Positions 10,898 to 27,796 of a DNA stretch of 30,466 bases are shown in pieces. Every line of letters starts with the position of its first letter. Positions within the stretch are counted from its first letter, which is position 1. This DNA comes from Candidatus Eiseniibacteriota bacterium (GTDB taxonomy: Bacteria > ARS69): NCBI GenBank assembly GCA_052390515.1, contig JBQTGV010000159.1, positions 1 to 30,466 on the forward strand. Direction: 5' to 3'. The notes under the pieces were generated by a model. That model made no database searches, was not told the DNA's origin, and saw only the letters and a program-made list of their open reading frames with translations. Position numbers and translations under genes: made by a program.

Positions 10898-11167
10898 TCA
10901 AGGCTCGGCCGATTCCGCGGCCGGCCCGTCCGCATCGAACATGCGGTACTCGCGGACGGAGCCCGAGTCGTAGCGCAGCTCGTCGCCGAGCGAGTACGTG
11001 CCGAAGGCCGCGTCCTGGTAGTAGGACACGAGTCCGGCGGCGGGGTCGTCGAGGAGGAAGGGGAGCCGTGCGGCGAGGAACAGCGCGAGCGCGGCGACGG
11101 ACCGTTCGCCAGCGGTGCCACGCGGGTGCGGCTGCCGGCTCTGCCTCGGGCGGAGAGGCCATGGCAC
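10898..11167 (-). CDS. Hypothetical small membrane protein or gene fragment (up to 89 aa)
   Basis: Protein-like composition with one hydrophobic stretch (SVAALALFLAARLPFLL) followed by LVSYYQDAAFGTYSLGDE. Start uncertain. Confidence 0.35.
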   Translation of the reverse strand: MPWPLRPRQSRQPHPRGTAGERSVAALALFLAARLPFLLDDPAAGLVSYYQDAAFGTYSLGDELRYDSGSVREYRMFDADGPAAESAEP

Positions 11168-11212
11168 CGTCGAACCTGCCTCGCCGGACCCGCGCCCGTC
11201 ATCCCCGCCGCG

Positions 11213-11281
11213 GCCGAGGCTCAGCCCGGCGTGGACCTTCTCGACCGCGACAAGCTCTTCGATCTCATGAACGGCCGCTGA
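11213..11281 (+). pseudogene. C-terminal remnant of a VapB-type antitoxin
   Basis: Frame ending in TGA at 11279-11281, 2 nt before the vapC ATG, reads AEAQPGVDLLDRDKLFDLMNGR*. This resembles the PGVDL.DRD.L.DLM tail of VapB antitoxins. No recognisable N-terminal DNA-binding part upstream. Confidence 0.6.
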
Positions 11282-11283
11282 AG

Positions 11284-11718
11284 ATGCTAGCGGTCGACAC
11301 GAACGTGCTGGTCTTCGCCGAGATCACCACGTCGCCACATCACGCGCAGGCTCGCGCCGTTCTGACCGAGCTCGCGCAGGGCACCGTTCCGGGCCATTCC
11401 GTGGCCCTGCATCTACGAGTTCCTGCGGGTGGTCACGCATCCACGCGTGTTCCATCCGCCGGTGCCGTTGCGCCGCGCGCTGGAGGACGTGCGCGCCGCC
11501 TCCTGGACTCGCCGACGCTCGTCCTGCTGCAAGAGACCCCCAACCACGACGAGACGATGATGCGGGTCCTTCGAGAGTCCGAAGTGTCCGGCAACCTGAT
11601 TCACGATGCCCTCATCGCGGCGCTTTGCATCGAGCACGGAGTCCAGGAGCTCGTGACCGGGGACCGCGACTTCGGCCGGTTCAAGCCGCTGAAGACGCGG
11701 AACCCCTTCGAGGGGTGA
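11284..11718 (+). pseudogene. vapC: VapC/PIN-domain toxin with two compensating frameshifts
   Basis: MLAVDTNVLV N-terminus and GNLIHDALIAALCIEHGVQELVTGDRDF C-terminus share one frame. The conserved middle AIPWPCIYEFLRVVTHPRVFHPP...ALEDVR lies in another frame between ~11393 and ~11499. Confidence 0.8.
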
Positions 11719-11795
11719 GCCGAGGGTCTTCCTGTCAGGTGCTTCCTCTCTCGCCGCGTCTCACCGGATCGGAGCGAGCGGGACAGTTTGACCAC

Positions 11796-12218
11796 TCAGG
11801 GAACGACCGCGAATCCCTCCCGCCGCGCTGCCTCGCCGAGCCGCTTGTCGAGGCAGACGAACTCCCAGCCGAGCGGTTCGTCGTAGGCGGCGGTGAGCGC
11901 CGCACCGAGCTGGAACGCGTCCGCCGCCCGCAACGCGTGAGCGCCGAGAAGGCGCTTCGCCCTCAGCTTCACGGGTTCGATCACCGAGACCGTGTGCACT
12001 CCCTGCCAGAACGACTCGATGCGCTCGACGGCCTTCTGGACGTCGGCGGCATCGAGCACGCCGTCGCGTGCCAGCCGTGCGACGGCGGAGCGCATCTCGA
12101 CGTCGCTCAGGATCCAGGCGAGAACCGCTGAATCCCGCGAGTGCAATCGCCGAAGGGAAGCGGTGTGCTCGTGAGCCACGTGCAGTGCGACGAGCGCCGA
12201 CGAGTCCCAGAACCTCAC
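11796..12218 (-). CDS. vapC: Type II TA toxin, VapC/PIN domain (140 aa)
   Basis: MRFWDSSALV, VEMRSAV, LRAADAFQL, FVCLDKRLGEAARREGF acidic PIN motifs. GTG at 12218 overlaps the antitoxin stop (GTGA). Confidence 0.9.
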   Translation of the reverse strand: MRFWDSSALVALHVAHEHTASLRRLHSRDSAVLAWILSDVEMRSAVARLARDGVLDAADVQKAVERIESFWQGVHTVSVIEPVKLRAKRLLGAHALRAADAFQLGAALTAAYDEPLGWEFVCLDKRLGEAARREGFAVVP

Positions 12219-12499
12219 CGGTCCCGCTCTTCGATGAGCGCCTGGACTATGTCGCCGCGGCAAGGAATGGGAGGCTTTCGAAGCGCCGCCACGCCGCCGG
12301 TCCGGACCGGCCTGGTGATGATCCCGTCGCGAACCAGCCGCTCGACCGGGGAATCCGCGTCGGCGTCCTTGCCTCCGACGGATTGCAGGCGCGCCACCGG
12401 AATGGAGCGCTCCAGAACCAGGATGGTCTCGCCCCGCTTCACCAGACGCAGGTACTGGCTGAGGCGGTTCTTGAGCTCGGTGACGCTCACGCGGCGCAT
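12215..12499 (-). CDS. Type II TA antitoxin, Phd/YefM family (94 aa)
   Basis: VSVTELKNRLSQYLRLVKRGETILVLERSIPVARL is typical Phd/YefM. Directly upstream of vapC. Confidence 0.92.
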   Translation of the reverse strand: MRRVSVTELKNRLSQYLRLVKRGETILVLERSIPVARLQSVGGKDADADSPVERLVRDGIITRPVRTGGVAALRKPPIPCRGDIVQALIEERDR

Positions 12500-12580: not shown

Positions 12581-13807
12581 CTACCGGACCACGACGATCC
12601 GGCGCGTCTCCGAGCGGCTCTCACCCTCGACCCGGAGGAAGTAGACCCCCGCCGCGAGGCGCCTGGCGTCGATGACCACGGTCCGGCGCTCCCCGTCGCC
12701 GAGGCCGGCGCTCAAGAGGCTCCGCACGCGCCGTCCGCCCACGTCGATCAGGTCGGCCTGCACGTGCTGCCGCCCGTCGACGGAGAGCTCGAACCGCCCG
12801 GTCGCCGCGATCGGCTGGGGCCACGGCCCGGACAGCGAGAACCCGGCCGCTGCTTCCAGGGCCGGCACGCCCGTCGGGTCGTAGCAGCCGCCGCCCGAAG
12901 TCTCGGAAACCGCGAGGTACCCTCCGGCTCCGGCCACGGTGTACTTCGAGTTGAGGACCATGTCCGCGGCGAAGAGGTCGGCGGTCGTCCCGCTGTCGAG
13001 CAAGCACCACGTCGAGCCGGCGTCGGTGCTGCGTAGCACGGTGCCGCCCTCGCCGACCGCGAGCATCCAATTCGCGTTCTGGGCGCTCGAATCCAGGTCG
13101 TGCAGGTCGGCGGTGGTGCCCGTGGCGATGGGCAACCACGTCTCGCCGGCGTCGGTGCTCCGGAGAAGGATGCCGCCTTCACCCGCGGCGAACAGCCAGC
13201 CGGCCGCGCCCTCCAGGTAGGCGTACAGGTTCGCCGTGGTGCCGCTGGGCTTCGCCACCCAGTTCGCTCCGCCGTCCACCGTCTTCAAGATGGTGCCGCC
13301 GTCGCCCACCGCGTACGCGAGGCTGGTGGAGAAACCGTTGCCGTCCCGGATCGCGGAGGTCGTGCCGCTGGACTGGAGGCTCCAGTTGTCGCCCCCGTCC
13401 GTCGACCGGTAGATGGAGCCGCCGGTGCCGCCGGCGAACGACGCCCCGCTGCTGCGGCTGAAGACCACGAAGTCCTCCGCGCTCGCGATGTCGCGACTCT
13501 CCCAGGACGCGGCGACGAGCCGGCGGACGGCGCCGCCCGCCCCGCTGATCCACGCCTGCCCGGCCGACGGCTGGTGCACGGCCAGGAGATCGTCGGTGGA
13601 TCCCACGCTGACGGGGGTCCAGACGAGCTGCGTCGGGTCGGACTGGGCGACGAAGCCGGCGTCGCCGACCACGTAGCGCTGCGAGTGGCTCGACTTCTCG
13701 ATCGCCCTCAAGCTCGCGGACGTTCCGAGCGGGATGACCGTCCAATCCTGGGCATGGGCAGATGGCGCGATCATCCCGACGATCGCGAGAATGGACCGGG
13801 CGCGCAT
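12581..13807 (-). CDS. Secreted Ycf48/BNR-repeat beta-propeller protein with C-terminal T9SS/FlgD-like sorting domain (408 aa)
   Basis: Signal peptide ending AHA-Q, repeated GxGGxI(L/Y)RSTDxGxxW units, C-terminal PWPQP...DVGGRRVRSL...LAAGVYFLRV. RBS AAGGAG. Confidence 0.88.
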   Translation of the reverse strand: MRARSILAIVGMIAPSAHAQDWTVIPLGTSASLRAIEKSSHSQRYVVGDAGFVAQSDPTQLVWTPVSVGSTDDLLAVHQPSAGQAWISGAGGAVRRLVAASWESRDIASAEDFVVFSRSSGASFAGGTGGSIYRSTDGGDNWSLQSSGTTSAIRDGNGFSTSLAYAVGDGGTILKTVDGGANWVAKPSGTTANLYAYLEGAAGWLFAAGEGGILLRSTDAGETWLPIATGTTADLHDLDSSAQNANWMLAVGEGGTVLRSTDAGSTWCLLDSGTTADLFAADMVLNSKYTVAGAGGYLAVSETSGGGCYDPTGVPALEAAAGFSLSGPWPQPIAATGRFELSVDGRQHVQADLIDVGGRRVRSLLSAGLGDGERRTVVIDARRLAAGVYFLRVEGESRSETRRIVVVR

Positions 13808-13957
13808 GGCTCTCTCCTTGACCGGGTCGGCTCGACCTCTCGCTCGTCAAATCGAGAACCGGGGCCGGCAGCCGCCACGCGCCACGGGCCGCGCGCCGTC
13901 CTGGGGGGAGATTGCGCCTTCGCGGGGATGCCGGATCAGCCAGGCCGGTCCATCCCG

Positions 13958-15022
13958 CTAGGCCGGCTCGAACCCGAGCCCCGGCCGCCCCGTCGGCCGG
14001 AGCACGCCGCCGTCCAGCAGCACCGCACCGGCCGCGGGATCACCGATCAGGTCCAGGTGCCCGTCCAGGTCCGCGTAGACCACATTGGACCGCGCCAGCG
14101 CGTAGTGCAGCCCGGCGGCGATGCCCAGCGCCGACTCGTCCATGCAGCCGACCATCACCTCGACGCCGGCCGCCCGCGCCACCGAATTGATGTGCAGCGC
14201 CTCGCCGATGCCGCCCACCTTCATGATCTTCACGTTGACGATGTCGGCGAGACCGCCGGCCGCAATCCGGAAGGCGTCCCGCACGTTCATCAGGCTCTCG
14301 TCGGCCATGACCGGAATGGACACGCCCGCGGTCACCTGGCCCAGCAGCGCGAGGTCACCCTTCGGCGTGGGCTGCTCGATCAGCTCGAGCCGCGCGGCGC
14401 GCGTCCGATCCACGAAGTCCAGCGCCTGCGCCACCGTGTATCCCTGGTTCGCGTCGAAGCGCAGCTCGACGCCGTCGCCCACGCGCTCTCGGACGCGGCG
14501 CACGCGCTCGACATCGCCCTCCGGGTCGAGCCCGCCCTTGATCTTGAGCCGGCGGACGCCGCGCGTCGTCCATCGAGCCGCAGCCTCGACCGTCGCCTCC
14601 GCCGGCAGGATGCCGATCGTGACGCTCGTCTCGATCGAGTCGCGGTAGCCGCCGAGGATCTTCCACAGCGGCAACCCCGCTGCCTGCCCCAGCAGATCGT
14701 GCAGCGCGATGTCGATTCCGGCGAGCGCGGCGGGCTGCCCGGCGAGCAGCGGCCTGAGCCGCTCCAGCAACCGCACGCGCGCCAGTGCGTCCTCGCCCCG
14801 GAGCACCGGCTCGATGACGTCGCGCACGGCGGCCAGCACTCCCGCCGGCGTCTCCCCGGTGACCGCCGCGTCCGGCGCGGCGCAGCCCCACGCCGTCGGG
14901 CCGCCGTCCGTGGTCAGCTTCAGGAACACGTTCGTCGTCGACGAGACGGTCTCGTACGCGATCGTGTACGGCTCCTCGAGACGCATCTCGACCGCCCACG
15001 CTTCGACGCCGGTGATTCGCAA
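13958..15022 (-). CDS. Enolase-superfamily dipeptide epimerase / N-acyl amino acid racemase (AEE/DgcA-like; 354 aa)
   Basis: KxK (LKIKG), metal ligands in RFDANQG, IEQP and ADES, second Lys in NVKIMK, and C-terminal DLDG. TTG start. Confidence 0.92.
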
Positions 15023-15037
15023 CGTCGCCTCGCCGCC

Positions 15038-17380
15038 TCAGTAGCGCCGTTCGTGGATCTGGTCGAGGGAGAGCTTCTTGAGGTGCTCGACCATCTCCAC
15101 GAGGTTCTTGATCATCGCTTCCCAGATGCGTTCGCCCTTCTCGGCCGTCGCCTTCGTCGGATCCCCCAGCACGCCGTGCGGCGAGATCTTCTGCGTGCGC
15201 GCGTACCACTCGACGCTCCTGTTCCCGCTGAAGTCGAGGTAATCGCTGGAGAACTGCGGCACGAACTTCTTCGCCCGGCGCATGTCCACGAGGTGCGGGC
15301 GAACGGCGAGCGTCGTGCTCGTCTCGATCTCGCCGGCGTGCACGTCGTTGGGCGTATCGGCGATCTTGGCCACGTCCGCGTCCGAGGTCTCGCCGGTGTC
15401 CACGCAGGCGAAGATGTGCGCGTCGCGGTTGATCATCTGGGCGGCGAGCTGCAGCGTGGGCGCGTTCCCGCCGTGGCCGTTGATGATGACCAGCTTGACG
15501 ATTCCGTTGCGGGCCGCGCTCATGCCGATCTCGTAGACGAAGCGCACCAGCGCCTCGTTGCTCACGCTGAGCGTGCCCGGAAAGTCGTCGTGGTGGTACG
15601 ACACGCCGTACGGCACCAGCGGCAGCACGAGCGGCTTGGGATCGCTGCAGCGCTCGGCCACGCGCATGGCCAGGTACTGCGCGTCGTGCGAGTCCGTGTC
15701 CAGCGGGCTGTGGGCTCCGTGCTGCTCGATCGCTCCGACGGGCAGCAGCGCGAGATCCACTTCCTTGAAGCGCCGCTCGGCCTCGGGCCAGGAGAGCTCG
15801 CCGAGGATCCAGGGGCGCTTGCCGGGAGTCGGCGCGGCGCGATCGTCGGCCGCGGCGCCGGCGCGCTCCAGCGAGTACGGCAGCTCGAAGCGCGAGTCCG
15901 CCTGATCCACGTCGAGCCACATTCGCCCCTGACGCTCGACGCAGCCCTGGGAGTGCGCTGCGAAGATGCGCAGCAGCGGCCGGCGCAGATCCGTGGGAAT
16001 GGCGTCGAAGGGTGACCGCTCGCCGTCGAGGCGCACCTTCTCGATCTCCGGATGACGCCGGGTCTTCGGCCGCGCCGGCACGAGCCCGCGGTCGGCCAGC
16101 AGCGCATACACGTGTTCGGCCCCCGCCGCCTCCTGCTTCACCGGCTGCGTCTCCAGGGCCTTCAGGCAGCGTTCGATCTGCTCCGTCGTGTAGCCCAGCG
16201 TGCCCGGATCGGCTTGGATGGCGGTGAGCATGCCGACGATGCGGCGGCACTTCTCGCAAGCGCCGCACGGGTAAACGCGATCGCCCTCGACGTGGGTCAT
16301 GTGACAGGACATCTGCAGCCGCAGCACTTCCGGATAGCGCTCCGCGAGGATCTTCTCGATCAGGAACTCGGAGAGCGGCCTCAGGATCGAGAACTGCGAG
16401 ATCCCCCAGCGCTTGCGGCCGAAGTAGCGCGTCAGCGCGTTGTCGAACCAACGGCTCTGGTCGTACAGGCCCTCGTAATGGGTGATGCCGTGCGTCGTCG
16501 AACGCACCGAGGTGTCGTACTCGTCGCCGATGACGAGCCGGCCGATCTTGCGCTTCCTGAGCAGCGGCAGCGCTCCGAACAGGAACACGGCGACGGTCCA
16601 CAGCCGGATGGGATAGATGTCCGCGCGGATGCGGTCGAAGTCCGGACGCACGAAGGGCAGCCGTCGCAGCATCCAGGTGAAGAGCCGGTCGGAGTTCGTC
16701 CACACCCGCGCGGTCTGCGGCACGGTCGCGGCGAGCTCACGATACGCGTTGAGCGCGGTGTACCAGTGACGCCCGGACTCGTTCAGGAAGATGGGGTGCG
16801 TCTCGCGGCCGATCTCGCGCAGCAGGGCGAAGGAGAGCAGGCTGTCCTTCCCGCCGGAGGAGAGGACGGCGTGACGGGTTCGCTCCACCGGCCACTCCGC
16901 GCCGGCAGCCGCCGCGGCGCCCGGTCCGCCGGCCGCGCCGCCCACCGGCTTCGCCTCCTCGAAGCGCAGCGCCGCGCGCTGATACGTCTCCAGGCGTACG
17001 GCCTCGAGCTTGGACGCTTCGCCGATGAGGAACGGGTTCGGCGCGAGCAGCTTGTTCACCCAGATCTCGCGCGAGGTGTTCTCCGCCATCGAGGCGAGGA
17101 AGCGCCGGTCGGCCTCGTCGAACGGACCGTGGAACACGATCTCGTCGCCGAAGAGTCCGTAGTTCAGCGCCACCTGCGCGGCGATCATCGCCGCGAGGTT
17201 CGCGTCCGCCGGATCCTTCGGATCAAGCACCGGCTCTTCCCAGCGGTAGATGAGCTCGGATTGCTCCCGCGTCGCGCCGCGCACGACCGTGTACGGCGCG
17301 GTGATGCGCTGGGTCTCCACCTTGACCGGCCCGACCTCCAGCCGGTCGTACGCCTTGAGGAAGTCGGGGAAGGAGCTCAT
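15038..17380 (-). CDS. Fusion: N-terminal PP-loop ATPase (MurL/QueC-like, Cys cluster) + C-terminal creatininase-family amidohydrolase (780 aa)
   Basis: ATG at 17380 overlaps the upstream stop (ATGA). N-terminal part has LSSGGKDSLL, QFSILRPLSE, SCH and CGACEKC. C-terminal part (~15811-15038) has LPVGAIEQHGAH...D, NGHGGN and HAGEIETS. Confidence 0.85.
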   Translation of the reverse strand: MSSFPDFLKAYDRLEVGPVKVETQRITAPYTVVRGATREQSELIYRWEEPVLDPKDPADANLAAMIAAQVALNYGLFGDEIVFHGPFDEADRRFLASMAENTSREIWVNKLLAPNPFLIGEASKLEAVRLETYQRAALRFEEAKPVGGAAGGPGAAAAAGAEWPVERTRHAVLSSGGKDSLLSFALLREIGRETHPIFLNESGRHWYTALNAYRELAATVPQTARVWTNSDRLFTWMLRRLPFVRPDFDRIRADIYPIRLWTVAVFLFGALPLLRKRKIGRLVIGDEYDTSVRSTTHGITHYEGLYDQSRWFDNALTRYFGRKRWGISQFSILRPLSEFLIEKILAERYPEVLRLQMSCHMTHVEGDRVYPCGACEKCRRIVGMLTAIQADPGTLGYTTEQIERCLKALETQPVKQEAAGAEHVYALLADRGLVPARPKTRRHPEIEKVRLDGERSPFDAIPTDLRRPLLRIFAAHSQGCVERQGRMWLDVDQADSRFELPYSLERAGAAADDRAAPTPGKRPWILGELSWPEAERRFKEVDLALLPVGAIEQHGAHSPLDTDSHDAQYLAMRVAERCSDPKPLVLPLVPYGVSYHHDDFPGTLSVSNEALVRFVYEIGMSAARNGIVKLVIINGHGGNAPTLQLAAQMINRDAHIFACVDTGETSDADVAKIADTPNDVHAGEIETSTTLAVRPHLVDMRRAKKFVPQFSSDYLDFSGNRSVEWYARTQKISPHGVLGDPTKATAEKGERIWEAMIKNLVEMVEHLKKLSLDQIHERRY

Positions 17381-18480
17381 CGCCGGGGTGATGCGCCGAT
17401 GCGCCGCACGGCCTCGATGCGCGGGCGAAGGACGTCGACGAGCCCGGCGCCTCCGCCCTGCAGCGCGTCGAACGCGGGCAGCCCGGTCTCCTCGGTGATG
17501 CGGCGGCACGCGGCGGGCACGTCCGCCGCCGCGATCTCCTCGTGGTTGACGGTCACGGCGACGACCGGCTTGCCCGAGAGCAGCTCGATGGCCCGGATCT
17601 GCTCGGGCAGCCGGTGCAGCGGGTAGCCGGGGAAGCCGTCGTACTCGCGGCGGGCGGGTGCGTGCTGCACGACGACGGCATGCGGGCGGCCCGCGGCCAG
17701 CAGCTCGAAGCCGCCGGGGTACGCCGGGTTCATCAGCGAGCCCTGTCCCTCGATCACGATCACGTCGGGATCCCGCTCCTTCCACGCCCGCCACACGACA
17801 TGCTCCACCTCGCCGGAGACGAAGTCGTTCACGATCGAGTCCAGAACGATGGAGTACTCCGCGCCCTGCAGCCACGCGGTCTGTCCGGTACCGGCGAGCA
17901 GCGCGCGGAACCCGGCCGCCTCCAGTGCGTCGACCAGCACCCAGGCCGTCGTGCGCTTGCCGATGGCCGAGTCGGTGCCGAGCACCGCCACCCGGAACGA
18001 CGTCACCTCCTCGATCTTGCCGCTGAAGAAGTGCAGCTCCGAGCGGGGTGGTGGCTTGCGGATGTCGTGGATGCGCGCGCCGCTCTTCGTTGCCGCACGG
18101 ACCAGATCCTCGTCTTCGGAGAGGAAGTCGTGCAGGCCGCAATCCACGTGCAGCCCGAGCGAGAGCGCGGCGCGGACGTCCGCGCGCGCCTCTCGGGAGA
18201 GCCGGCCGCCGTCCGGCGCGAGGCCCACCACGAAGTGCGTGGCCGGCGTCCTTCGCGCGCGTCCCAGCTCGACCGCCTCGCGGAGGCTCCCGACGATCGG
18301 GATCCCGTTCGCCTTCCCGTCGAGCGTCTCACCGGCGTCGGCGCCGGCGTGCCGCGAGTCCACGATGCACAGCACCCCGTACCGCCGCGACCGCCGCACC
18401 AGCCCGTGCGCGGTCTTGCCGTTCGTCGTCCCGAACGCGCCCTCGCAGTAGACGACGGCCGTACCTTCCACGCCTCTCAC
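17377..18480 (-). CDS. DUF1611 family protein (DgcN-like N-acetyltransferase/P-loop; ~365 aa)
   Basis: GKTAHGLVR, GLHDFL, VLGTDSAIGKRTT, GTGQT, DFVSGEVE, IEGQGSL..PAY motifs. Start is GTG at 18480 (overlapping the upstream stop) or 18471. Confidence 0.88.
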   Translation of the reverse strand: MRGVEGTAVVYCEGAFGTTNGKTAHGLVRRSRRYGVLCIVDSRHAGADAGETLDGKANGIPIVGSLREAVELGRARRTPATHFVVGLAPDGGRLSREARADVRAALSLGLHVDCGLHDFLSEDEDLVRAATKSGARIHDIRKPPPRSELHFFSGKIEEVTSFRVAVLGTDSAIGKRTTAWVLVDALEAAGFRALLAGTGQTAWLQGAEYSIVLDSIVNDFVSGEVEHVVWRAWKERDPDVIVIEGQGSLMNPAYPGGFELLAAGRPHAVVVQHAPARREYDGFPGYPLHRLPEQIRAIELLSGKPVVAVTVNHEEIAAADVPAACRRITEETGLPAFDALQGGGAGLVDVLRPRIEAVRRIGASPRR

Positions 18481-19619
18481 TTCCTTCCGGTGAGGACGGC
18501 CACGTAGCGGTCGTTCGGGAAGGGACTCTTGCCGTGCATCTCGATCAGGGCGATGAGCCCCGCGGCCGCCGCCGGCAGGACCGAGAGGCCCTCCTTCTCC
18601 AGAACCAGCCGCGCGATCGCCTTCAAGTCCTTGTCCGTGGCGTAGGCCGCGGCCCCGTTCGTCGCGCGCAGCGCGTCCAGAGCATCCTCGCCCTCGGCCG
18701 AGTGCCAGTTGATGAGCGGCTCGTTCGTCGCCGTCTCGCGGATGGCGCGTGGATCCAGGTCCTCGTACGTGGCGGCGCCCTTGAGGAACGAGTGCACGAT
18801 GGGGTTCTTGCGGTAGGAGGACCCGGCGACCATCCGCGGCATCCGCGACGTCCGCCCGCGCCGGTAGAGGCTCAGGAAGCCGCGGTAGATTCCGGTGAGC
18901 GTCGTGCCGTTGGAGACCGGCACCGCAACGATGGCCGGCGCGTCGCGGAGCTGGTCGTAGATCTCGTAGGCGATCTCCCCGTAGGCCTTGAGCTGCAGCG
19001 CGGTGTTCGCGCCGCCGGGGTTCGCATCGTAGATGTCGTCGCGCTCGGCGCGCGCGCGGGACGCGGCGACCGCCCCCTCGTAGTCCTCGCCCTCGCGGAG
19101 GATCCTCGTGCCCAGCCGCTCCATCTCCTCGATTCGCCGCGAGCTGTAGCCCTTCGGAACGTACATGAAGCACTCCAGGCCGGCGCACATCGCCGCGAGC
19201 GCCATGGCCACCCCGTAGTTCCCGCAGGTCGCTGCGGTCACGGAGACGAACCCCCGCCGGATGGCGTCGGAGGCCTGGGCGAAGGCGATGCGGTCCTTCT
19301 GCGTGCCGGTGGCGTTGCTGCCCTCGAACTTGAGGAAGAGCTGCCGGATGCCCACTTCCCGCTCGACGTTCCGGGAGCGGGCCAGCGTCGTGTCGCCGAT
19401 CTCCGAGTCGAAAATGTTCTCCAGCGCCTCCAGGCGCTCGTCGATGCCGCGAGAGGGATCCGAGGCGATGGTCCGCTCGGCGCCGAGCTCGCCGGGGAGG
19501 ACCTTGGTCGAGTCCACCAGGAGGACGGGCGGGATCGTGTACCGGGCTTCCTCGCGCGCCTCGCCGTTGGTCGGCGGGAGGTGCTCGACCCGGGGCCCGG
19601 CGACGGGAGGGTCAGGCAC
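18477..19619 (-). CDS. Fold-type II PLP-dependent enzyme, threonine-synthase-like (380 aa)
   Basis: LFLKFEGSNATGTQKDR (PLP Lys), ATCGNYG, AYEIYDQL, VPVSNGTTL, VLTG. GTG at 19619 with AAGGAGG 6 nt upstream. Confidence 0.88.
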   Translation of the reverse strand: MPDPPVAGPRVEHLPPTNGEAREEARYTIPPVLLVDSTKVLPGELGAERTIASDPSRGIDERLEALENIFDSEIGDTTLARSRNVEREVGIRQLFLKFEGSNATGTQKDRIAFAQASDAIRRGFVSVTAATCGNYGVAMALAAMCAGLECFMYVPKGYSSRRIEEMERLGTRILREGEDYEGAVAASRARAERDDIYDANPGGANTALQLKAYGEIAYEIYDQLRDAPAIVAVPVSNGTTLTGIYRGFLSLYRRGRTSRMPRMVAGSSYRKNPIVHSFLKGAATYEDLDPRAIRETATNEPLINWHSAEGEDALDALRATNGAAAYATDKDLKAIARLVLEKEGLSVLPAAAAGLIALIEMHGKSPFPNDRYVAVLTGRK

Positions 19620-19848
19620 GGTAGTCCTCCTTGCGCAGTCCGTAGCGTCGCATCTTCTCGAACAGGGCACGCTCGCTGATCCCGGCGCGGCGCGCGGTCA
19701 GGCCGACCCGGCCGGCCGTGGCTCGGAGCGCCCGGTCCAGGTACTCGCGCTCGAACCGGGCGAGCAGCTCCTCGCGGGCGGCGGGCAGGGGGACGGCGAG
19801 CGGGTCCCCCACGGCGGCGGTCTTCGACGTGAGGGTTCGGCTCGGCAT
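19612..19848 (-). CDS. Stand-alone Fis/NtrC-type helix-turn-helix protein (78 aa)
   Basis: C-terminal end of track ORF 19612..21591. ATG at 19848 with GGAGG 8 nt upstream. FEREYLDRALRATAGRVGLTARRAGISERALFEKMRRYGL is the HTH_8 pattern. Confidence 0.78.
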   Translation of the reverse strand: MPSRTLTSKTAAVGDPLAVPLPAAREELLARFEREYLDRALRATAGRVGLTARRAGISERALFEKMRRYGLRKEDYRA

Positions 19849-19881
19849 CCGGGAGTCCTCCGACCGGTCGGGACACCGATA

Positions 19882-19912
19882 CCGAAAAAGCCGGCAGCGG
19901 TCTTCCGAAAAA
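19882..19912. promoter_or_regulatory. Direct repeat CCGAAAAA x2 in the divergent control region (possible operator)
   Basis: CCGAAAAA at 19882-19889 and 19905-19912 (23-bp period). A 12-bp palindrome CCGACCGGTCGG lies at 19860-19871. Confidence 0.3.
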
Positions 19913-20003
19913 ACTCGCGAAGAGGTCGGCGCTGGTCGTAATTTCCCGCCGGCGTCACTCGAACCGGAGGCGCCGCCGGACCCGAGAGGAGAACGCAGGT
20001 TCG

Positions 20004-20255
20004 ATGAGCAGGACCCGACGAAAGCCCCCCGGCCGTGATCGGGAGTCCGGGAAACGTCGCGGGAACACACCGGCACGGCGTCCGCCGAAGGATGAGCGAG
20101 CTCGAGAGGAGCTGGAATGGGACGAAGACGAGGCAGTCGACGACGAGCAGGAGGACATAGAGAGCCCCGACGAGAGCCTGGAGGAGGATGCTCTCGACGA
20201 GGGAATCTCGGAGGACTCCTGGGACGATGAGGAGCCGACTGAACGGGCGGGGTGA
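20004..20255 (+). CDS. Small intrinsically disordered protein with basic N-terminus and acidic C-terminus (83 aa)
   Basis: 14 R/K in the first 34 residues, then 27 D/E in 46 residues. AGGAG upstream. It fills the gap before the SET gene and does not look like a shadow frame. Confidence 0.6.
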   Translation: MSRTRRKPPGRDRESGKRRGNTPARRPPKDERAREELEWDEDEAVDDEQEDIESPDESLEEDALDEGISEDSWDDEEPTERAG

Positions 20256-20844
20256 AGGCGCCGCCTCGGCCCCGAGCACGAACGGAGGACCGCGGCGGGC
20301 GCGCCGCGAGCACGAATCCCGAGATGCGGTGATGCTGGGCGAGACGAACGTGGGCCGCGGCGTGTTCCTCGCCCGCGACGTCCGCGTGGGAGAACGGATC
20401 CTCGAGTTCCGCGGAACCCCGATGGACTTCGAGGACACGCTGCACATGGGCGATTTGGAGTGCTACGCGTTCCAGATCGGAAAGGACGAGTACCTCGACC
20501 TCGAGCCGCCGGGCCGCTTCGTCAACCACTCCTGCGAGCCGAACGCCGGCATCAAGGACGGCGTGTTCCTCGTCGCGCTGCGGGACATGAAGGCCGGCGA
20601 GGAGGTGCGCTTCGACTACTCCACCTGCATGAGCGAGGGCCACTGGACGATGGACTGCTGCTGCGGCGCGCAGTCCTGCCGGGGGCTCATCCGTGACTTC
20701 AGGTGGCTCCCGCGAGACCGCAAGACGGAGCTGGTCCAGATGGACGCCGTTCCCGCGTTCATCGTGGCCGAGGAGGTCGAGTCCGGCCGGCTCGCTGAGG
20801 TCGAGCCCGAGCGGGCTCCGGTGCGCCGCTACCGGAGGAGCTGA
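20227..20844 (+). CDS. SET domain protein-lysine methyltransferase with post-SET zinc cluster
   Basis: GRGVF, RFVNHSCEPN, GEEVRFDY, CCCGAQSCRG. Start uncertain (ATG 20227, GTG 20329 or ATG 20332). The 3' end overlaps the convergent molybdoenzyme gene by 16 nt. Confidence 0.88.
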   Translation: MRSRLNGRGEGAASAPSTNGGPRRARREHESRDAVMLGETNVGRGVFLARDVRVGERILEFRGTPMDFEDTLHMGDLECYAFQIGKDEYLDLEPPGRFVNHSCEPNAGIKDGVFLVALRDMKAGEEVRFDYSTCMSEGHWTMDCCCGAQSCRGLIRDFRWLPRDRKTELVQMDAVPAFIVAEEVESGRLAEVEPERAPVRRYRRS

Positions 20845-23663
20845 CCGCCGCGCTCCGGAAGGCGCCAGGCGTTCTTCGCCGGGCGCACCGGGCGGATCAG
20901 CCATCCGGGACGGCGTGTCCCGTCGGGCGAGCAGGCCAGCGCGGAGCGGGCCTTCGCCAGCCACTTTCGGTACACCTCGTGTGACTTGGCGACGTCGACG
21001 GCGACGTCGCCGTGGCGATCGTCCGGCTCCCCTCGCCGCACCCGCACCGCCTGGTGCCAGCAGTGCATGCCGGAGACCGGGTCCGGGTGCACGGGGAACG
21101 TCAGGTTCTGGTGCACGCCCGCGTCCGTCCACCAGATGCGCCGCGTGTCGGGATCCGCGGAGTCGTACGGGACGATTCCCTGGCTCCGGCGAAGGCGGAA
21201 GCGGCTGCCCGTCCGCTCGAGGGCGACGGTGGCCATGAGCTGGCGCTGGCCGTGCCCGTGCAGCTTCCATCGTCCCATGTGATGGCTGCAGGCCACCACG
21301 CCGGGGCGAATCCCCTCGGTCACCCACGCGCGAACGACGTACCAGCCGATTTCCGTTTCGACGCGCGCCAGGTCGCCGGTCTCGACCCCGACGCGGGCCG
21401 CATCGGACGGATGGATCCACAGCGGATTGGTGTGCGCGATCTCGTCCAGCCACTTGGAGTTCGCGCTGCGCGTGTGGATCTGCACCGGGACGCGGAACGT
21501 GGAGATCAGGATCATCTCGTCCTCGCGGAGCGCGCGCGGTCCGACGTGGCTCTCGAGGTGGCGGGGGACCGCGACCTCGCGCCAGCCCCACGCCGCGAGC
21601 GTCGACGACCAGAACTCGAGCCGGCCGCTCGGAGTGGGGAAGCCGCGCAGCACGCGGCCGTCGACGCGCACGCCGGCCGGTCGCCTCCCCTCCGCGTCGT
21701 CAGGCGGCGCTCCGGTCGGCGCCAGATTCACCGCGGCCGGCTTCGCCGCGCGCGTGTACACGCGGCCGAAGGCGTTCTCGACGACGTCCTCGAGCTCGGC
21801 CGCGGGCACTTCCTCCTCGTGCAGCGGCCCGACGTTCTTCGCCACCTCGAAGGCGCCGTACCGCCGCATGTACTCGAGCGGCGTGCGCCCCTCGCCCGCG
21901 GCCCGCTCGGGCAGCCCGGGAACGGCGTGCGCGAAGAGGTGACCGTAGTACTCGTCGACGGACAGACGCGTACCGGGCCGTTCAACGGACTCCACGAACT
22001 CGCGGATGCCGAGAGAGCCGTCCGGGTCGATCCGCCAGGACAGCTCCAGCCAGAACTCGTTCTCCTCCCAGACCTCACCTGGATTCACCTGGCGCGTGTC
22101 GGTGATCGTTTCGCCCAGACGCCTCCGTGCCTCGCGCAGCACCGGCTGGCGGAAGCCGATCCACTGTCCGTCGTACGTCTCGTAGGAGTGCACGTCATGG
22201 CGCTCGCTGGCGTGGCCCATCGGCAGGATCAGGTCGGCGAAGTACGCGGTCTCGTTCCAGGTCGGCGTCATCGCGACGTGCAGACCGACCTTCGCCTCGT
22301 CGGTGAGCATCTCGATCCAGGAGAAGCCGTCCGGGTTCGTCCACACCGGGTTGTAGACGCGCGTGAAGTACACGTCGAGACGGCCGCGTCCCTCCTTGAG
22401 GAAGTGCGGCAGCAGGAAGGACAGCTCGTTCTGCGCGAGCGGATACTCGACCGGCCAGGAGAGCTCGTTCCAGTGCTCGGGGTGGCGGTGCGGCAGCCGG
22501 ATCGGCTTCGCCACGAACTTGTTCCACGCGTTCGGATAGGTGCCGCCCGGCGTGGCCACGGCACCCAGCAGTGCGTTCAGCAGGAACAGCGTGCGCGCCA
22601 CCTGCCAGCCGCCCTCGTTGCCCGCAGCGGCGCTGCGCCAGGTGTGCGTCGACAGCCGCGTGCCCGCACCGGCCACCGCGTCGGCCACCTCCCGCAGGGT
22701 GATCACGTCGATGCCGGACTCGGCCGCGGCGCGCTCGAACGTGTACTCGGCGTACTGCTCCCCGAGCACGCGTTCGAACGTGGCGAAGTCGTCGGGCCGG
22801 CCCGGATGCTCCGCGGCCAGGTACTCGCGCCAGTTCCACCAGCGGCGAACGAACTCGCGGTCGTGGCGGCGCTCTCGGATGATGTGCGCGGCGATGGCCA
22901 GGTGTATGAGCGGCTCGGATCCGGGCCGGCACGGCAGCCACCAGTCGGCGTGCGTCGCCGTGTTGGAGAGGCGCGTGTCCAGCACGATGATCTTCGCGCC
23001 GCGCTGCTTCGCCTCGATGATGCGCTGCGCGTGCGGGTTGAAGTAATGCCCGGTCTCCAGGTGCGAGCTCACCAGGAAGATGACGTCGGCGCGGGCGTGG
23101 TCGGGGCTCGGCCGGTCGATGCCCATCCAGAACTGGTAACCGGCGCGCGCGTTCGACGAGCAGATGTTGGTGTGCGAGTTGTGGCCGTCGACGCCCCACG
23201 CCGCCAGCATCCGCTCGACGAAGCCGTCTTCGCCGGGGCGGCCCACGTGGTACATGATCTCGCGGTGGCGCTTCTCGCGGAGTGCGGTGCCGATGCGCGC
23301 GGCCAGCAGGTCCAGCACTTCGTCCCAGCCGATCCGTTCCCACTGCCCGGCCCCGCGCGCGCCCACCCGCCGCAGCGGGTGCAGGATGCGGTCGGGATCG
23401 GTGATCTGGTTGAGCGTGGCCGGACCCTTCGCGCAATTGCGTCCGCGGGATCCCGGATGCTCGGGATTGCCCTCGAAGCGGCGGATCTTCATCGTGTCCC
23501 GGTCCACGTAGGCGAGCAGCCCGCAGGCCGACTCGCAGTTGAAGCAGGTAGTGGGCACGAGCAGGCATCGCCGCTCGACGCGCCGCGGCCAGGCCTTCGC
23601 GTCGAGCTCGGACCAGTCGTCCCAGCTCTCCTTCGGCGGATACGCGGCGAGCTCCCGATCCAT
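20829..23663 (-). CDS. Molybdo-bis(PGD) oxidoreductase catalytic subunit, Psr/Phs/Sre/Soe-like, no Tat signal (944 aa)
   Basis: ATG at 23663 after AGGAG. CFNCESAC...NCAKG 4Fe-4S motif, DRILHPLRR, HTNICSS (candidate Cys ligand), ETAYFADLILP, WIHPSDA...GVETGD C-terminal domain. Confidence 0.92.
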   Translation of the reverse strand: MDRELAAYPPKESWDDWSELDAKAWPRRVERRCLLVPTTCFNCESACGLLAYVDRDTMKIRRFEGNPEHPGSRGRNCAKGPATLNQITDPDRILHPLRRVGARGAGQWERIGWDEVLDLLAARIGTALREKRHREIMYHVGRPGEDGFVERMLAAWGVDGHNSHTNICSSNARAGYQFWMGIDRPSPDHARADVIFLVSSHLETGHYFNPHAQRIIEAKQRGAKIIVLDTRLSNTATHADWWLPCRPGSEPLIHLAIAAHIIRERRHDREFVRRWWNWREYLAAEHPGRPDDFATFERVLGEQYAEYTFERAAAESGIDVITLREVADAVAGAGTRLSTHTWRSAAAGNEGGWQVARTLFLLNALLGAVATPGGTYPNAWNKFVAKPIRLPHRHPEHWNELSWPVEYPLAQNELSFLLPHFLKEGRGRLDVYFTRVYNPVWTNPDGFSWIEMLTDEAKVGLHVAMTPTWNETAYFADLILPMGHASERHDVHSYETYDGQWIGFRQPVLREARRRLGETITDTRQVNPGEVWEENEFWLELSWRIDPDGSLGIREFVESVERPGTRLSVDEYYGHLFAHAVPGLPERAAGEGRTPLEYMRRYGAFEVAKNVGPLHEEEVPAAELEDVVENAFGRVYTRAAKPAAVNLAPTGAPPDDAEGRRPAGVRVDGRVLRGFPTPSGRLEFWSSTLAAWGWREVAVPRHLESHVGPRALREDEMILISTFRVPVQIHTRSANSKWLDEIAHTNPLWIHPSDAARVGVETGDLARVETEIGWYVVRAWVTEGIRPGVVACSHHMGRWKLHGHGQRQLMATVALERTGSRFRLRRSQGIVPYDSADPDTRRIWWTDAGVHQNLTFPVHPDPVSGMHCWHQAVRVRRGEPDDRHGDVAVDVAKSHEVYRKWLAKARSALACSPDGTRRPGWLIRPVRPAKNAWRLPERGGQLLR

Positions 23664-23674
23664 CGCGGCTTCTC

Positions 23675-25171
23675 CTAGGCGAGCGGCACGGACTGGCCGG
23701 CCTGGACGTAGGCGTGCTCGTGGGCGAAGAGCCCGACGAGGGCGAGCGGCGCGACCCACGTGCCGAGCCAGGGGGCCGCGACCCCGGCGGCGACCAGCAC
23801 GATTCCCGCGGCGAACCAGGTGCGCCAGCGGCCGTGCGTCATCTCCCGCGTGGCGAGGTGCGCGTGGGCGGTGGCGTGCGGCAGCGTCGTCTCACCGGCG
23901 ACCAGGGCGAGGTGCGTGGCGCAGGCGGCGGCGAGCACGAGGGCGATCACCGGCGCGACGGCCGGCTCCACCCGCTCGGCCACGGGAAGCAGCGCCGCGG
24001 CGCCGGCCAGCACGGCCTGCACCAACAGGTGCGGCGGGAGCAGCGGGCTCTGCCACAGGTCGCGGGCCTTGGCCTGGGCGAAGAGCCACGCGGTGTAGAC
24101 GGCGGTGAGCGCGGCCAGCGGCACGCCCGGCCAGCGAAGGGCGTCGTGCAGAGCGGGCCGGTCGAGCAGGGCGGCGGCGAAGTGCAGGCCGAGCACCGCG
24201 GCGTACGCGCCGATCAGATACGCGCCGCGCACGAGCCAGCTTCGCCACTGCGAGCGCGTGAAGATCAGCAGGAAGCGGCGCGGATGCTCCAGGTCGGCGA
24301 TGAGGATCACGCCGGTGAGCGCCAGGAACGCCGCGGCGACGAGCGGCGCCGCCCCGAGCCGGAGCGCGCCGTCCGAGGCGAAGGCCGCCACCAGGTACGC
24401 GCCGGCGGCGACCGACTTGGTCAACGTGTAGAGGCTCACGCGCCAGTCCCACGGCGCGCGGTGCGGCACGTCGTAAGAGAGGACGGCGGCGGCCGAGCTG
24501 GCGGACGGCGCAGCACGGCCGTTCCCGTTGCCCTGCTCGCTCCACAGGAAGAGCCCTCCCGAAGGTCGGCGTGCCACGAGCGGATCGAGCGTGGCGTGGT
24601 GCGCGCCACGGTAGAAGAGCTTCGGCGCGGTCTCCTTCTCCGGCCGGCGGACGGTCGTCGCCTGGCGGTTGACGAAGCGGGACAGCCGCGATCCGGGATC
24701 GTTCAGGTCGCCGACGAGGATGGATTGCGTCGGGCAGACGATGACGCACGCCGGCTCGAGCCCCCGGTCGATGCGGTGCGCGCAGAAGTTGCACTTCTCC
24801 GCGGAGTGATCCTCGGGGTTGATGAAGATGGCGTCGTAGGGGCACGCGGCGATACAGGCCTTGCACCCGATGCACACCGACTTGTCGACGTCGACGATGC
24901 CGTCGGCGCGGCGGACCATCGCCGCGGTCGGACAGGCGTGGACGCAGGGAGGGTCGGCGCACTGGTTGCAGCGGGTGACCTGGAACGCCCGTCGAACCTG
25001 CGGGAACGTGCCGACGTCGACGTACTTGACGTAGGTGCGGGTGACGGAGAGGGGGACGTCGTTCTCCGACTTGCAGGCGGTGGTGCAGGCGTGGCATCCG
25101 ATGCAGGTCTCGTGGTCGATGACCTTCGCCCACTGCACGGGCTTCGGGGCGAGACCGTGCTGGACCGTCAC
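23675..25171 (-). CDS. Fused 4Fe-4S electron-transfer subunit (NrfC/PsrB-like) + NrfD/PsrC-type membrane anchor (~498 aa)
   Basis: CIGCHACTTAC, CNQCADPPCVHACP, CIGCKACIAACP, KCNFC...PACVIVCP, followed by PWDWRVSLY...LIADLEHPRRF...SWLVRGA multi-TM region. Likely GTG start at 25171. Confidence 0.9.
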   Translation of the reverse strand: MTVQHGLAPKPVQWAKVIDHETCIGCHACTTACKSENDVPLSVTRTYVKYVDVGTFPQVRRAFQVTRCNQCADPPCVHACPTAAMVRRADGIVDVDKSVCIGCKACIAACPYDAIFINPEDHSAEKCNFCAHRIDRGLEPACVIVCPTQSILVGDLNDPGSRLSRFVNRQATTVRRPEKETAPKLFYRGAHHATLDPLVARRPSGGLFLWSEQGNGNGRAAPSASSAAAVLSYDVPHRAPWDWRVSLYTLTKSVAAGAYLVAAFASDGALRLGAAPLVAAAFLALTGVILIADLEHPRRFLLIFTRSQWRSWLVRGAYLIGAYAAVLGLHFAAALLDRPALHDALRWPGVPLAALTAVYTAWLFAQAKARDLWQSPLLPPHLLVQAVLAGAAALLPVAERVEPAVAPVIALVLAAACATHLALVAGETTLPHATAHAHLATREMTHGRWRTWFAAGIVLVAAGVAAPWLGTWVAPLALVGLFAHEHAYVQAGQSVPLA

Positions 25172-25199
25172 CGCGATTCTTTCGCCGGAGGGTGGTCGT

Positions 25200-25209
25200 G
25201 AGTATACTC
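25200..25209. promoter_or_regulatory. Palindrome GAGTATACTC in the divergent intergenic region (bidirectional -10 or operator)
   Basis: Perfect 10-bp palindrome containing TATACT on both strands, within the 80-bp gap between two divergent operons. Confidence 0.4.
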
Positions 25210-25251
25210 GGCATTTATAGCGCACCCTCCTCAACCTCCGGAAGCGAACAA

Positions 25252-26466
25252 GTGGACGCGAAGCACCGCCAGTGGACCGCCGCCGACCTGAACGAGCGGA
25301 TCGAGCGCGGCGAGGACTTCTTCGTGCTGGACGTGCGCAACCGCGACGAGTTCGCCCTCGTCCGGATCGAGGGCCGGCGGGAACTGTCGTCCCGGAACGT
25401 GCCCTACTTCGAGATGCTGGAGGCGGGGGGTGCCGCCGACCTCGTGGAGTCGGTGATGCTCTACGTGCAGACCGAGCTTGCTGGGGAGCTCCCTCGGGAC
25501 CGGCCGGTCCTGGCCGTGTGCGCGAAGGGCGACACCTCGGAGCACGTCGCGGCGGCGCTCGCGCGGCTGCGCTACGACGTGGCCAACCTCGCGGGAGGGA
25601 TGGAGGCGTGGTGCGGGTACTACGAGGTTCGCCCCGCCGTCGAGGATGGCGCGGTCACGATCTGGCAGGTCGTCCGTCCCGCGCGCGGCTGCCTGAGCTA
25701 CGTGCTGGCCTCCGGCGGGCGCGGGCTCGTTGTCGATCCCGCGCGACACGTGCAGCAGTACGTCGATCTGGCCGACGACGCGGGGTTCGAGATCGACGCG
25801 GTCGTCGACACGCACGGACACGCGGACCACATCTCCGGGGGGCCGGCGCTCGCGGAGGAGCTCGGCGTGCCGTACTGGCTGCATCCCTACGACGGCATCC
25901 ACCCGCTGGACGTGCTTCCGGCGCGGGTGTCGTACCGCTGCCTCGCCGGCGGGGCGGAGTTCGCGCTCGGCGACGAGACCGTCCGCGTCCTGTGGATCCC
26001 GGGGCACACGCTGGGCAACACGGCGCTGCACGTCGGCCGCCGCTGGCTGCTCTCCGGGGATTCCATCTTCGTGCGCTCCATCGCCCGGCCGGACCTCGGT
26101 GGGAAGGCCGAGGCGTGGGCGCCGCTGCACTTCGATTCGCTGGCGGCGTTGCTGGAGCTGCCCGCCGAGACCGTGGTCCTCCCCGGCCACTTCTCGGCGC
26201 GGGCCGAGGCCGACGAGCGCGGGGTCTTCGCCGCCGCCCTGGGAACCCTGCGTGAGGCGAACGAGGGGCTCCACGTGGTGGGGCAGGGCCGGGAGCGTTT
26301 CATCGAGTACATTCTCGGGAGCCTGCCGACCTTCCCGCCGGAGTACGTCGACATCAAGCGGGTGAACGCGGGACTCATCCACCCGGACGAGGACCGGGCG
26401 AGGGAGCTGGAGACGGGCAAGAATCTCTGCGCCCTGGCCCGGGTGTCCGAGGCGCTGAAGCGGTAG
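25252..26466 (+). CDS. Rhodanese + metallo-beta-lactamase-fold persulfide dioxygenase-like fusion (~404 aa)
   Basis: Rhodanese LDVRNRDEF...VCAKGDTS...NLAGGMEAW, then GCLSY, DTHGHADHISG, PGHT, SGDSIF...RPDL, LPGH and a C-terminal NLC. Likely GTG start at 25252. Confidence 0.9.
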   Translation: MDAKHRQWTAADLNERIERGEDFFVLDVRNRDEFALVRIEGRRELSSRNVPYFEMLEAGGAADLVESVMLYVQTELAGELPRDRPVLAVCAKGDTSEHVAAALARLRYDVANLAGGMEAWCGYYEVRPAVEDGAVTIWQVVRPARGCLSYVLASGGRGLVVDPARHVQQYVDLADDAGFEIDAVVDTHGHADHISGGPALAEELGVPYWLHPYDGIHPLDVLPARVSYRCLAGGAEFALGDETVRVLWIPGHTLGNTALHVGRRWLLSGDSIFVRSIARPDLGGKAEAWAPLHFDSLAALLELPAETVVLPGHFSARAEADERGVFAAALGTLREANEGLHVVGQGRERFIEYILGSLPTFPPEYVDIKRVNAGLIHPDEDRARELETGKNLCALARVSEALKR

Positions 26467-26486
26467 AATCACCCGAGGAGGGTGCC

Positions 26487-27764: not shown

Positions 27765-27790
27765 CCCGCGGCCCCTCCACTCGCGATAAT
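27761..27790 (+). promoter_or_regulatory. Putative sigma70-type promoter, possibly leaderless
   Basis: TTGACC (27761-27766), 18 nt, GATAAT (27785-27790), 6 nt, ATG at 27797. No clear Shine-Dalgarno sequence. Confidence 0.5.
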
Positions 27791-27796
27791 GAAGCC

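Follow-up and report, generated by a model that had tools for sequence, protein, structure and literature searches.

An Unnamed MurL-Like Enzyme Family as the Basis of a Widespread Four-Gene Operon in Bacteria, with a Three-Gene Core in Archaea

Introduction

Which compound is made or removed by a compact set of genes that joins enzymes of amino-acid acylation and stereochemistry with a predicted adenylating domain? This question is raised by a contig of 30,466 bp (JBQTGV010000159.1; the whole of it is called the window here) from a Candidatus Eiseniibacteriota bacterium, whose genome (G000) amounts to 4.27 Mb and is 95% complete. An earlier note on this DNA had listed five open reading frames (ORFs), for a helix-turn-helix (HTH) protein, a pyridoxal phosphate (PLP) enzyme, a DUF1611 protein, a PP-loop::creatininase fusion and an epimerase, and had taken them for a five-gene operon that extends the DgcN–DgcA pair of D-Glu catabolism. 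All five ORFs are present in the overlapping or near-adjacent layout described, on the minus strand (Table 1): the HTH and PLP ORFs overlap by 8 bp, a GTGA and an ATGA overlap follow, and a 15-bp gap precedes the epimerase gene. It may be concluded that this is a real, widespread four-gene operon built on an unnamed MurL-like family, and no member of the DgcN–DgcA system. No description of the operon was found in a literature search that covered few subscription papers and no supplements, and a description elsewhere is possible.

Conservation of the Operon in Bacteria

The GTDB was scanned with the PP-loop domain alone as a query, 159 stretches were confirmed, and the best 80 of these 159 are the loci considered in this work; conservation across the whole family is overstated by them, because they are the closest ones. 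The DUF1611 gene was found in 79 of the 80 loci, the PLP gene in 75, the creatininase domain in 73 and the epimerase gene in 71, which is far beyond chance, the loci having been chosen by the PP-loop domain only. The four-gene set is complete in 65 loci; in 8 others it runs into the end of a contig, and 7 are truly without a part. In all loci having the parts, the order PLP, DUF1611, PP-loop::creatininase, epimerase is constant. The cassette of amino-acid acylation and stereochemistry with an adenylating domain, as proposed earlier, is therefore real and co-occurring: its four enzyme genes (five domains) are conserved together, while the HTH ORF, matched in only 4 of the 80 loci, is a remnant of a regulator and does not belong to it.

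The records of these loci belong to Gemmatimonadota, Acidobacteriota, Calditrichota, Bacteroidota, Deltaproteobacteria, Woeseiaceae, Spirochaetota, Krumholzibacteriia and others. The size of the PP-loop family is indicated by 3018 matches to the domain query among 8000 scored candidate proteins; full-length creatininase fusions, which were aligned, make up 116 among the 120 matches listed. The gene is present in 8 of 11 genomes of the same family, and 49 random genomes of the same domain gave no full match and one weak partial match. The operon recurs in many sediment bacteria, and a three-gene core of it occurs in archaea that have no peptidoglycan. One protein (P0128, 855 aa) is a DUF1611::PP-loop fusion, directly joining both enzymes.

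The PP-Loop Domain and Its Relations to MurL and QueC

The N-terminal part of the fusion protein, about 500 aa, has no Pfam match, including none to PF06508, and a sequence search of the PDB with it gave 0 matches. It contains an SGGKDS loop (SGGK[D/E]S in the family), four cysteines in the arrangement C359-x12-C372xxC375xxC378 and an additional N-terminal domain. The single match in NCBIfam was a weak one to the MurL model NF041275 (21 bits, E 8e-5, cut-off 700), a model that has no match at E<=0.001 in the host's own genome. Profile comparison by hhalign with MurL, represented by two sequences whose genes each stand beside a MurD-like gene (L128, L129), gave 96.9% and E 1.7e-10 over 196 columns spanning GGKDS, SxLRPLSE and CGxCxKC, and the MurL set accounts for 27 of the 30 matches of the domain in the ESM Atlas (Atlas 0.96). 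Judged by these comparisons, the PP-loop domain is homologous to MurL, the closest named family.

An AlphaFold2 model of the domain (predicted local distance difference test, pLDDT, 90) was superimposed on QueC with Z 12.6 (3.0 Å, 188 residues) and on Cap9 with Z 12.4; root-mean-square deviations for these two proteins lie between 2.6 and 3.0 Å over 174–188 aligned residues, and other PP-loop enzymes reached Z 9.4 or less. Foldseek gave QatC with E 1.1e-6 over about 400 columns. The predicted fold is thus that of QueC, Cap9 and QatC. Invariant in 127/127 copies are S175, G177, K178, S180, E201, H205, W206, D231, R232, D254, Y256, E287, D289, D307 and Q308, together with the four cysteines.

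Adenylation of a carboxylate by the domain is well supported by analogy, because MurL uses ATP, and QueC, Cap9 and QatC adenylate a carboxylate. MurL converts ATP to AMP in a one-way inversion of the C-terminal L-Glu of an N-acyl peptide (PMC8788868, PMC5808125) and is described as the first epimerase that uses ATP, with an unresolved mechanism (PMC8788868); QueC, Cap9 and QatC adenylate the carboxylate and then trap it with an amine (PMC13329287).

The family under study resembles MurL in size, in the extra N-terminal domain and in the motifs GGK[D/E]S, SxLRPLSE and CGxCxKC. Unlike MurL, it fails the cut-off of the model, has invariant motifs of its own (NESGxHW, WxxxDR, DxYP, GxExD and DQ), occurs in archaea and is often fused to an amidohydrolase; no MurD-like cluster was seen in the 80 loci, whereas true MurL adjoins a MurD-like gene. 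With the QueC family, including Cap9 and QatC (PF06508), it has in common the fold, the SGGxDS-type loop and the four-Cys zinc site. The canonical QueC motifs YxQxHxxE, VPxRN and YPDC (PMC13329287) are replaced here by NESGRHW, YPIRL and GDEYD, the domain is of about 500 aa against about 222 aa, and no queD or queE was seen among the scanned flanking ORFs. The operon context also fits none of clusters 1–6 and 9 of that paper (clusters 7, 8 and 10 are not analysed there).

The structural matches bring in another explanation, which we regard as improbable: the product of the PLP and DUF1611 enzymes would be conjugated to a protein, RNA, lipid or cofactor in the manner of QatC and Cap9, and the hydrolase and epimerase would remove or recycle this tag. 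QatC and Cap9/QueC (Z about 12.5) are indeed the best structural matches, and enzymes of this type join a carboxylate to the N-terminus of a protein (PMC13329287). In addition, the hydrolase is nearest to the peptidase MftE, and the archaeal neighbours are translation-related. However, no conserved precursor peptide or partner protein was found among ORFs of at least 70 aa (shorter ORFs were outside this test), no 7-deazaguanine or defence genes were found among the 171 flanking ORFs scanned, and the QueC motifs YxQxHxxE and YPDC are replaced.

A second, stand-alone PP-loop family of about 478 aa was observed in the archaeal sample described below (L171:6218-7654, L172:5314-6750, L173:2916-4151 and L174:5690-7126). 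It has LSCGKDS and FSCNC...WCHSCNKC, is 23–26% identical to the studied domain and stands without PLP or DUF1611 partners.

Archaeal Core and Accessory Genes

The archaeal sample consisted of 301 genomes of the phylum to which G061 belongs, Thermoplasmatota by the record title and the tree label. The PP-loop query matched 58 of them; G143 was dropped, as its sole match is a distant partial paralogue, and 57 carriers were left. All 57 have DUF1611, which is also found without the PP-loop gene in 36 further genomes. The 40 archaeal loci examined have the order PLP, DUF1611, PP-loop without the creatininase domain, with the PLP gene adjacent in 35 of them by full-length alignment. Genome-wide, a creatininase orthologue was found in one carrier only (G061, in a cassette of bacterial type), distant homologues only in 37, and none in 19. 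Orthologues of the epimerase (E<1e-85) were found in 15 of the 57; when nearby, the gene is on the opposite strand, mostly beside that of an M14-like peptidase (of the 40 loci, 9 have the epimerase and 7 the M14 gene; 3 additional loci have both). Because of this usual adjacency, the hydrolase and epimerase behave as a module. The core therefore comprises three genes, PLP, DUF1611 and MurL-like, and the hydrolase and epimerase are accessory. The suggestion that the creatininase is the deacylase of the pathway is not supported for it as an obligatory component, since its orthologue was found in only 1 of the 57 genomes keeping the core.

In a quick unrooted tree built from 65 of the 128 rows, a deep clade of the archaeal sample stands apart from a shallow bacterial clade in which phyla are mixed. 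One locus labelled Thermoplasmata (L037, from G061) has the full four-gene operon of the bacterial type and is nested among bacteria, which may be due either to transfer or to contamination of the bin.

The same distribution bears on peptidoglycan, as muropeptide recycling had been offered earlier as one purpose of the genes. Supply of D-Glu of the MurL type, or recycling of muropeptides with an Ala-Glu epimerase, would agree with the homology to MurL and YkfB, with the archaeal pair of epimerase and M14 peptidase, reminiscent of YcjG and MpaA, and with a C69 dipeptidase upstream in three related loci. Such a role is very unlikely, in our opinion: an archaeal phylum that lacks peptidoglycan keeps the core in 57 of the 301 genomes sampled, the host has another source of D-Glu in its own MurI (over the cut-off), and murD2 is not adjacent, unlike in true MurL (L128, L129). 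Moreover, R24 of YkfB, which we take to be the Arg of the Glu pocket, is Glu in 58/64 epimerases of the operon. Since the MurL-like family occurs in archaea, its chemistry probably extends beyond cell walls.

Partner Enzymes

The PLP enzyme is over the cut-off of the PRK06381 model NF004996 (397 against 266 bits), a family of fold-type II labelled "threonine synthase"; this cut-off was passed in 0/14 control genomes. Identity with threonine synthase ThrC was rejected, as TIGR00260 gave 86 bits against a cut-off of 167 and the true thrC lies elsewhere in the host, on contig C89. The N-S...R site, presumably the phosphate site of threonine synthase, is replaced. In serine racemase, Ser84 acts as the re-face base (PMC6424897). 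The Schiff-base lysine K108 and C132, in a T-C132-G-N motif, are present in 109/109 homologues of the PLP enzyme, and C132 aligns with the Ser of cystathionine beta-synthase (CBS) in alignments of CBS and threonine synthase. Matched through an SGN motif, C132 occupies what we assume to be the position of Ser84, which suggests a place for it at the re-face base position of serine racemase. On a rather doubtful reading, the enzyme could be a cysteine-using racemase of fold-type II, and it might then account for the PLP-dependent activity of an aspartate racemase reportedly obtained from Thermoplasma acidophilum by Long et al. in 2001. The conserved C-terminus TGR[K/R] was considered as a substrate of the MurL-like domain that would give an Arg-Lys dipeptide; this was rejected, as the ends vary by 0–3 residues in bacteria and by more in archaea, and as the C-terminal codons in the window also serve the DUF1611 gene as its purine-rich ribosome site.

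The DUF1611 protein consists of a Rossmann-like domain and a domain with the P-loop GTDSAIGKRT, and 2g0t, 2obn and 7xrj are its relatives in the PDB by sequence. It may be regarded as a distant relative of DgcN and a putative N-acyltransferase or ligase; a likeness to BioD-type ligases is seen in its GTD..GK-T loop and EGxG motif. Two archaeal DUF1611 proteins (L131:4683-6263 and L132:4485-6059) have an N-terminal extension of about 180 aa without a Pfam match, and no PLP gene is adjacent to theirs; in G291, a different contig carries the PLP orthologue.

In the creatininase-like domain, the metal ligands E552, H554, D563, H636 and E686, aligned to 1q3k, are invariant in 117 sequences. Both relevant models gave scores under the cut-off, MftE (TIGR03964) 164 against 172 bits and creatininase (TIGR04448) 106 against 235. 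The domain has NGHGGN, as in MftE-like members, versus NGHYEN, and E122 of creatininase, the Glu after the metal His, is not kept. It is, by these features, a putative binuclear-metal amidohydrolase nearest to MftE.

The nearest solved relatives of the epimerase are 1jpm (YkfB, E 1e-72), 3jva from E. faecalis (2e-67) and 3rit from M. capsulatus (6e-66). Like these dipeptide epimerases, it keeps both catalytic Lys (K162 and K265, with K160/K162 forming KxK), the metal carboxylates D190/E216/D241 and the D318-x-D320 element, which we take to bind the free amine and which is kept in 62/64 bacterial and 9/9 archaeal copies. An acidic side-chain pocket is formed by E24 and D295-E296, the former in place of the Arg of YkfB; GCMDE(S) is common with 3rit, and YkfB has GSMIE. 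Unlike for the known enzymes, no NlpC/P60 or MpaA neighbour was seen in the bacterial loci. The protein therefore appears to be a dipeptide epimerase with an acidic pocket rather than DgcA.

The comparison with the DgcN–DgcA route (EC 2.3.1.312, EC 5.1.1.25) is thus reduced to the occurrence of a DUF1611 protein together with an isomerase of the enolase family in a single operon. Both proteins fail the respective models (DgcN NF041892, 156 bits against a cut-off of 480; DgcA NF042940, 161 against 400), the epimerase is of the dipeptide type, and the partners to which DUF1611 is tied here are the PLP and MurL-like enzymes rather than the epimerase. The view of the operon as an extension of that pair has to be abandoned.

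Clearance or salvage of D-amino acids may nevertheless be considered, and we hold it to be unlikely, albeit the most serious of the competing explanations. DUF1611 would acetylate the D-amino acid, the MurL-like domain, driven by ATP, would invert it one way from D to L in place of DgcA, the fused amidohydrolase would deacetylate it, and the PLP enzyme would degrade or racemise the product, with dipeptides containing D-residues left to the epimerase; run from L to D, these three steps would yield a D-amino acid in free form. PMC12363236 presents the DgcN route as irreversible, costly racemisation, and the fusion P0128 and the PP-loop::hydrolase fusion together round off a sequence of acylation, inversion and deacylation. 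A gene for D-aminoacyl-tRNA deacylase was seen in 12 of the 40 archaeal loci and also in L180, and C132 stands where a racemase would have its base. On the other hand, no conserved uptake system was found, the creatininase orthologue is confined to a single archaeal carrier and no homologue of any kind turned up in 19, the known direction of MurL is from L to D, the deacylase neighbour belongs mostly to one clade, and CBS, which is no racemase, has Ser at the position of C132.

Neighbouring Genes

From 4413 clustered ORFs, 171 of 238 picked flanking ORFs and 14 cluster representatives were scanned against Pfam. No conserved transporter or regulator was found in these flanks, which argues for an endogenous substrate. 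Enrichment was controlled by genome-wide copy counts for 50 of the 80 loci, mostly longer ones. CorA is near the operon in 7/50 loci versus 0.17 expected (P 7e-10; expectation for all 80, 0.20), and an Na/Ca exchanger in 5/50 versus 0.22 (P 4e-6; for all 80, 0.27). With one count per phylum (4 phyla), the value for CorA, calculated by hand, is about 3e-5. Further neighbours, for which there was no control, include CCC (4 loci), MscS-type channels (7 loci), MgtE, TreT, RimK+AstE and KamA+HDAC.

In Calditrichota, a KamA-like aminomutase, a GNAT protein and an HDAC-domain protein are encoded directly upstream on the same strand (L018:2280-5462, L034:1-951, L042:2922-5474), a set that recalls, by analogy, the metabolism of acetyl-beta-lysine. 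Modules found directly upstream in single loci are RimK+AstE (L006:3520-5806), FGase::glutathione-synthetase-like+QEGLA (L026:1683-5091) and DUF5752+TreT (L008:3813-5692). Similar small membrane genes were noticed near the operon in archaeal loci L133, L137 and L141 (by eye) and in bacterial loci L019, L054, L071 and L074; the bacterial one scanned proved to be DUF5698/DUF2179.

Proposed Pathway and Its Significance

Gene content, order, distribution, folds and conserved motifs were observed, and every step below is derived from homology and context. The earlier interpretation was borne out in part, and the proposal of it that we have taken up as the best reading is that a modified amino acid or dipeptide is synthesised. 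Tentatively, and with somewhat less than even confidence, we propose that the core makes an intracellular stress metabolite, an N-acylated amino acid or dipeptide epimerised or amidated at its C-terminus, which the hydrolase and epimerase recycle. A compatible solute or ion-stress metabolite would be its likeliest role. The PLP enzyme would supply an unusual or D-configured amino acid, and DUF1611 would acylate its amine, as the relative DgcN does with D-Glu. The MurL/QueC-like domain would then adenylate the alpha-carboxylate with ATP, resulting either in irreversible inversion of the residue (MurL chemistry) or in trapping with an amine or ammonia (QueC chemistry). For breakdown, a metal amidohydrolase, creatininase-like in bacteria and apparently M14-like in some archaea, would free the N-terminus, and the dipeptide epimerase would turn the D-residue at the C-terminus, probably a basic one, back to L, a form open to ordinary peptidases. 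An analogy is provided by the operon of the osmolyte N-acetylglutaminylglutamine amide (NAGGN; TIGR03103/03104 and an M42 peptidase), in which N-acetylation, ATP-dependent capping of a carboxylate and a hydrolase are likewise brought together; the protein families differ at every step, and the likeness is one of logic only.

Several facts weigh against this proposal. A protect-invert-deprotect route would account at least equally well for the fusion of the supposed breakdown hydrolase to a synthetic domain. R259, a QueC-like residue, is present in 80/80 bacterial and only 25/47 archaeal copies, archaeal epimerases have N or S at position 295, and this query detected no PLP orthologue in 3 of the 5 genomes inspected for it (G144, G147 and G591; all are incomplete metagenome-assembled genomes). 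The preference of the epimerase for basic residues is assumed by analogy with 3rit, which reportedly prefers basic dipeptides. The ion-transport families were picked after being seen, kin loci are not independent, and the co-location may reflect only co-transfer of niche genes. None of the ion or osmotic neighbours is present in the window, and the archaeal neighbours are housekeeping genes (RimI-like GNAT, Tsr3, D-aminoacyl-tRNA deacylase), not ion transporters.

A broader and rather doubtful version of the proposed synthesis is that the triad of PLP, DUF1611 and MurL-like enzymes is an old cross-domain pathway for a compatible solute that contains a D-residue or is capped by an amide. If this is true, the first MurL-type ATP-driven epimerase outside peptidoglycan would be at hand; the pathway would be common in Thermoplasmatota and would have passed horizontally between sediment bacteria together with a breakdown module of its own.

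In any case, a large unnamed sister family of MurL arrives with fixed partner enzymes that narrow its substrate. The operon bears on the turnover of D-amino acids in sediments if an osmolyte or a sink of D-amino acids is what it produces. Surveys equating DUF1611 genes with dgcN may be including this different pathway. The "threonine synthase" label of PRK06381 would also be corrected. Three or four soluble enzymes make a directly testable system.

Gene Layout and the HTH Remnant

Table 1. Coordinates of the five ORFs and of the two domains of the fusion protein in the window.
Feature	Position	Strand	Assignment
HTH ORF	19848-19612	minus	78 aa, Fis-type; Pfam HTH_8 3e-8
PLP enzyme gene	19619-18477	minus	Pfam PALP; core gene 1
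DUF1611 gene	18480-17377	minus	Pfam DUF1611_N/C (PF17396/PF07755); start GTG 18480 or 18471; core gene 2
PP-loop::creatininase fusion gene	17380-15038	minus	780 aa
Fusion N-terminal ~500 aa, putative PP-loop adenylating domain	17380-15815	minus	MurL-related, predicted QueC fold; core gene 3
Fusion C-terminal creatininase/MftE-family domain	15814-15038	minus	Pfam Creatininase PF02633 3e-71; accessory
Epimerase gene	15022-13958	minus	Pfam MR_MLE_N/C; enolase superfamily; accessory

The GC content at third codon positions (GC3) is 0.91–0.94 across all five ORFs. In all 4 loci matched by the HTH ORF, it corresponds to the C-terminus of a longer sigma-54 activator. In L001, the HTH is 63% identical to residues 438–512 of a 519-aa activator directly upstream of the PLP gene, with a SET gene beyond, as in the window, and a whole sigma-54 activator precedes the operon in L092, from the same-family genome G002. 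All 6 relatives obtained in a metagenome scan with the HTH are likewise tails of sigma-54 activators, and GC3 falls from 0.91 inside the ORF to 0.61 in frame upstream. By these comparisons, the HTH ORF is a deletion remnant, the C-terminal tail of a sigma-54 (AAA+-HTH) activator that has lost the domains upstream of it. GGAGG stands before its ATG, and the remnant may still be translated from a usable start. As a remnant matched in so few loci, it was rejected as the regulator of the operon. A sigma-54 activator is near the operon in 8 loci. A scan for sigma-70 promoters and terminators over 13500–20300 found 0, and the sigma-54 consensus was met at chance level (18 matches versus 23 expected).

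Other Features of the Window

Divergently from the operon, a very acidic ORF of 83 aa (20004-20255, plus strand) is followed by a SET-domain gene (20188-20844, plus strand); a SET gene is also found upstream of the operon in L001, L004 and L006. A polysulfide-reductase-like cluster at 20829-26472 (minus strand) comprises the genes for a molybdopterin oxidoreductase and a 4Fe-4S::NrfD fusion, and an ORF of 413 aa that has no match in Pfam. BNR/sortilin-repeat proteins with C-terminal FlgD-Ig or sorting-type domains are encoded at 12581-13807 (minus strand) and 27761-30373 (plus strand). Downstream of the operon, just past its neighbouring BNR-repeat gene, each strand carries one ORF with a PIN domain (11167-12263); both are probably parts of toxin-antitoxin modules.

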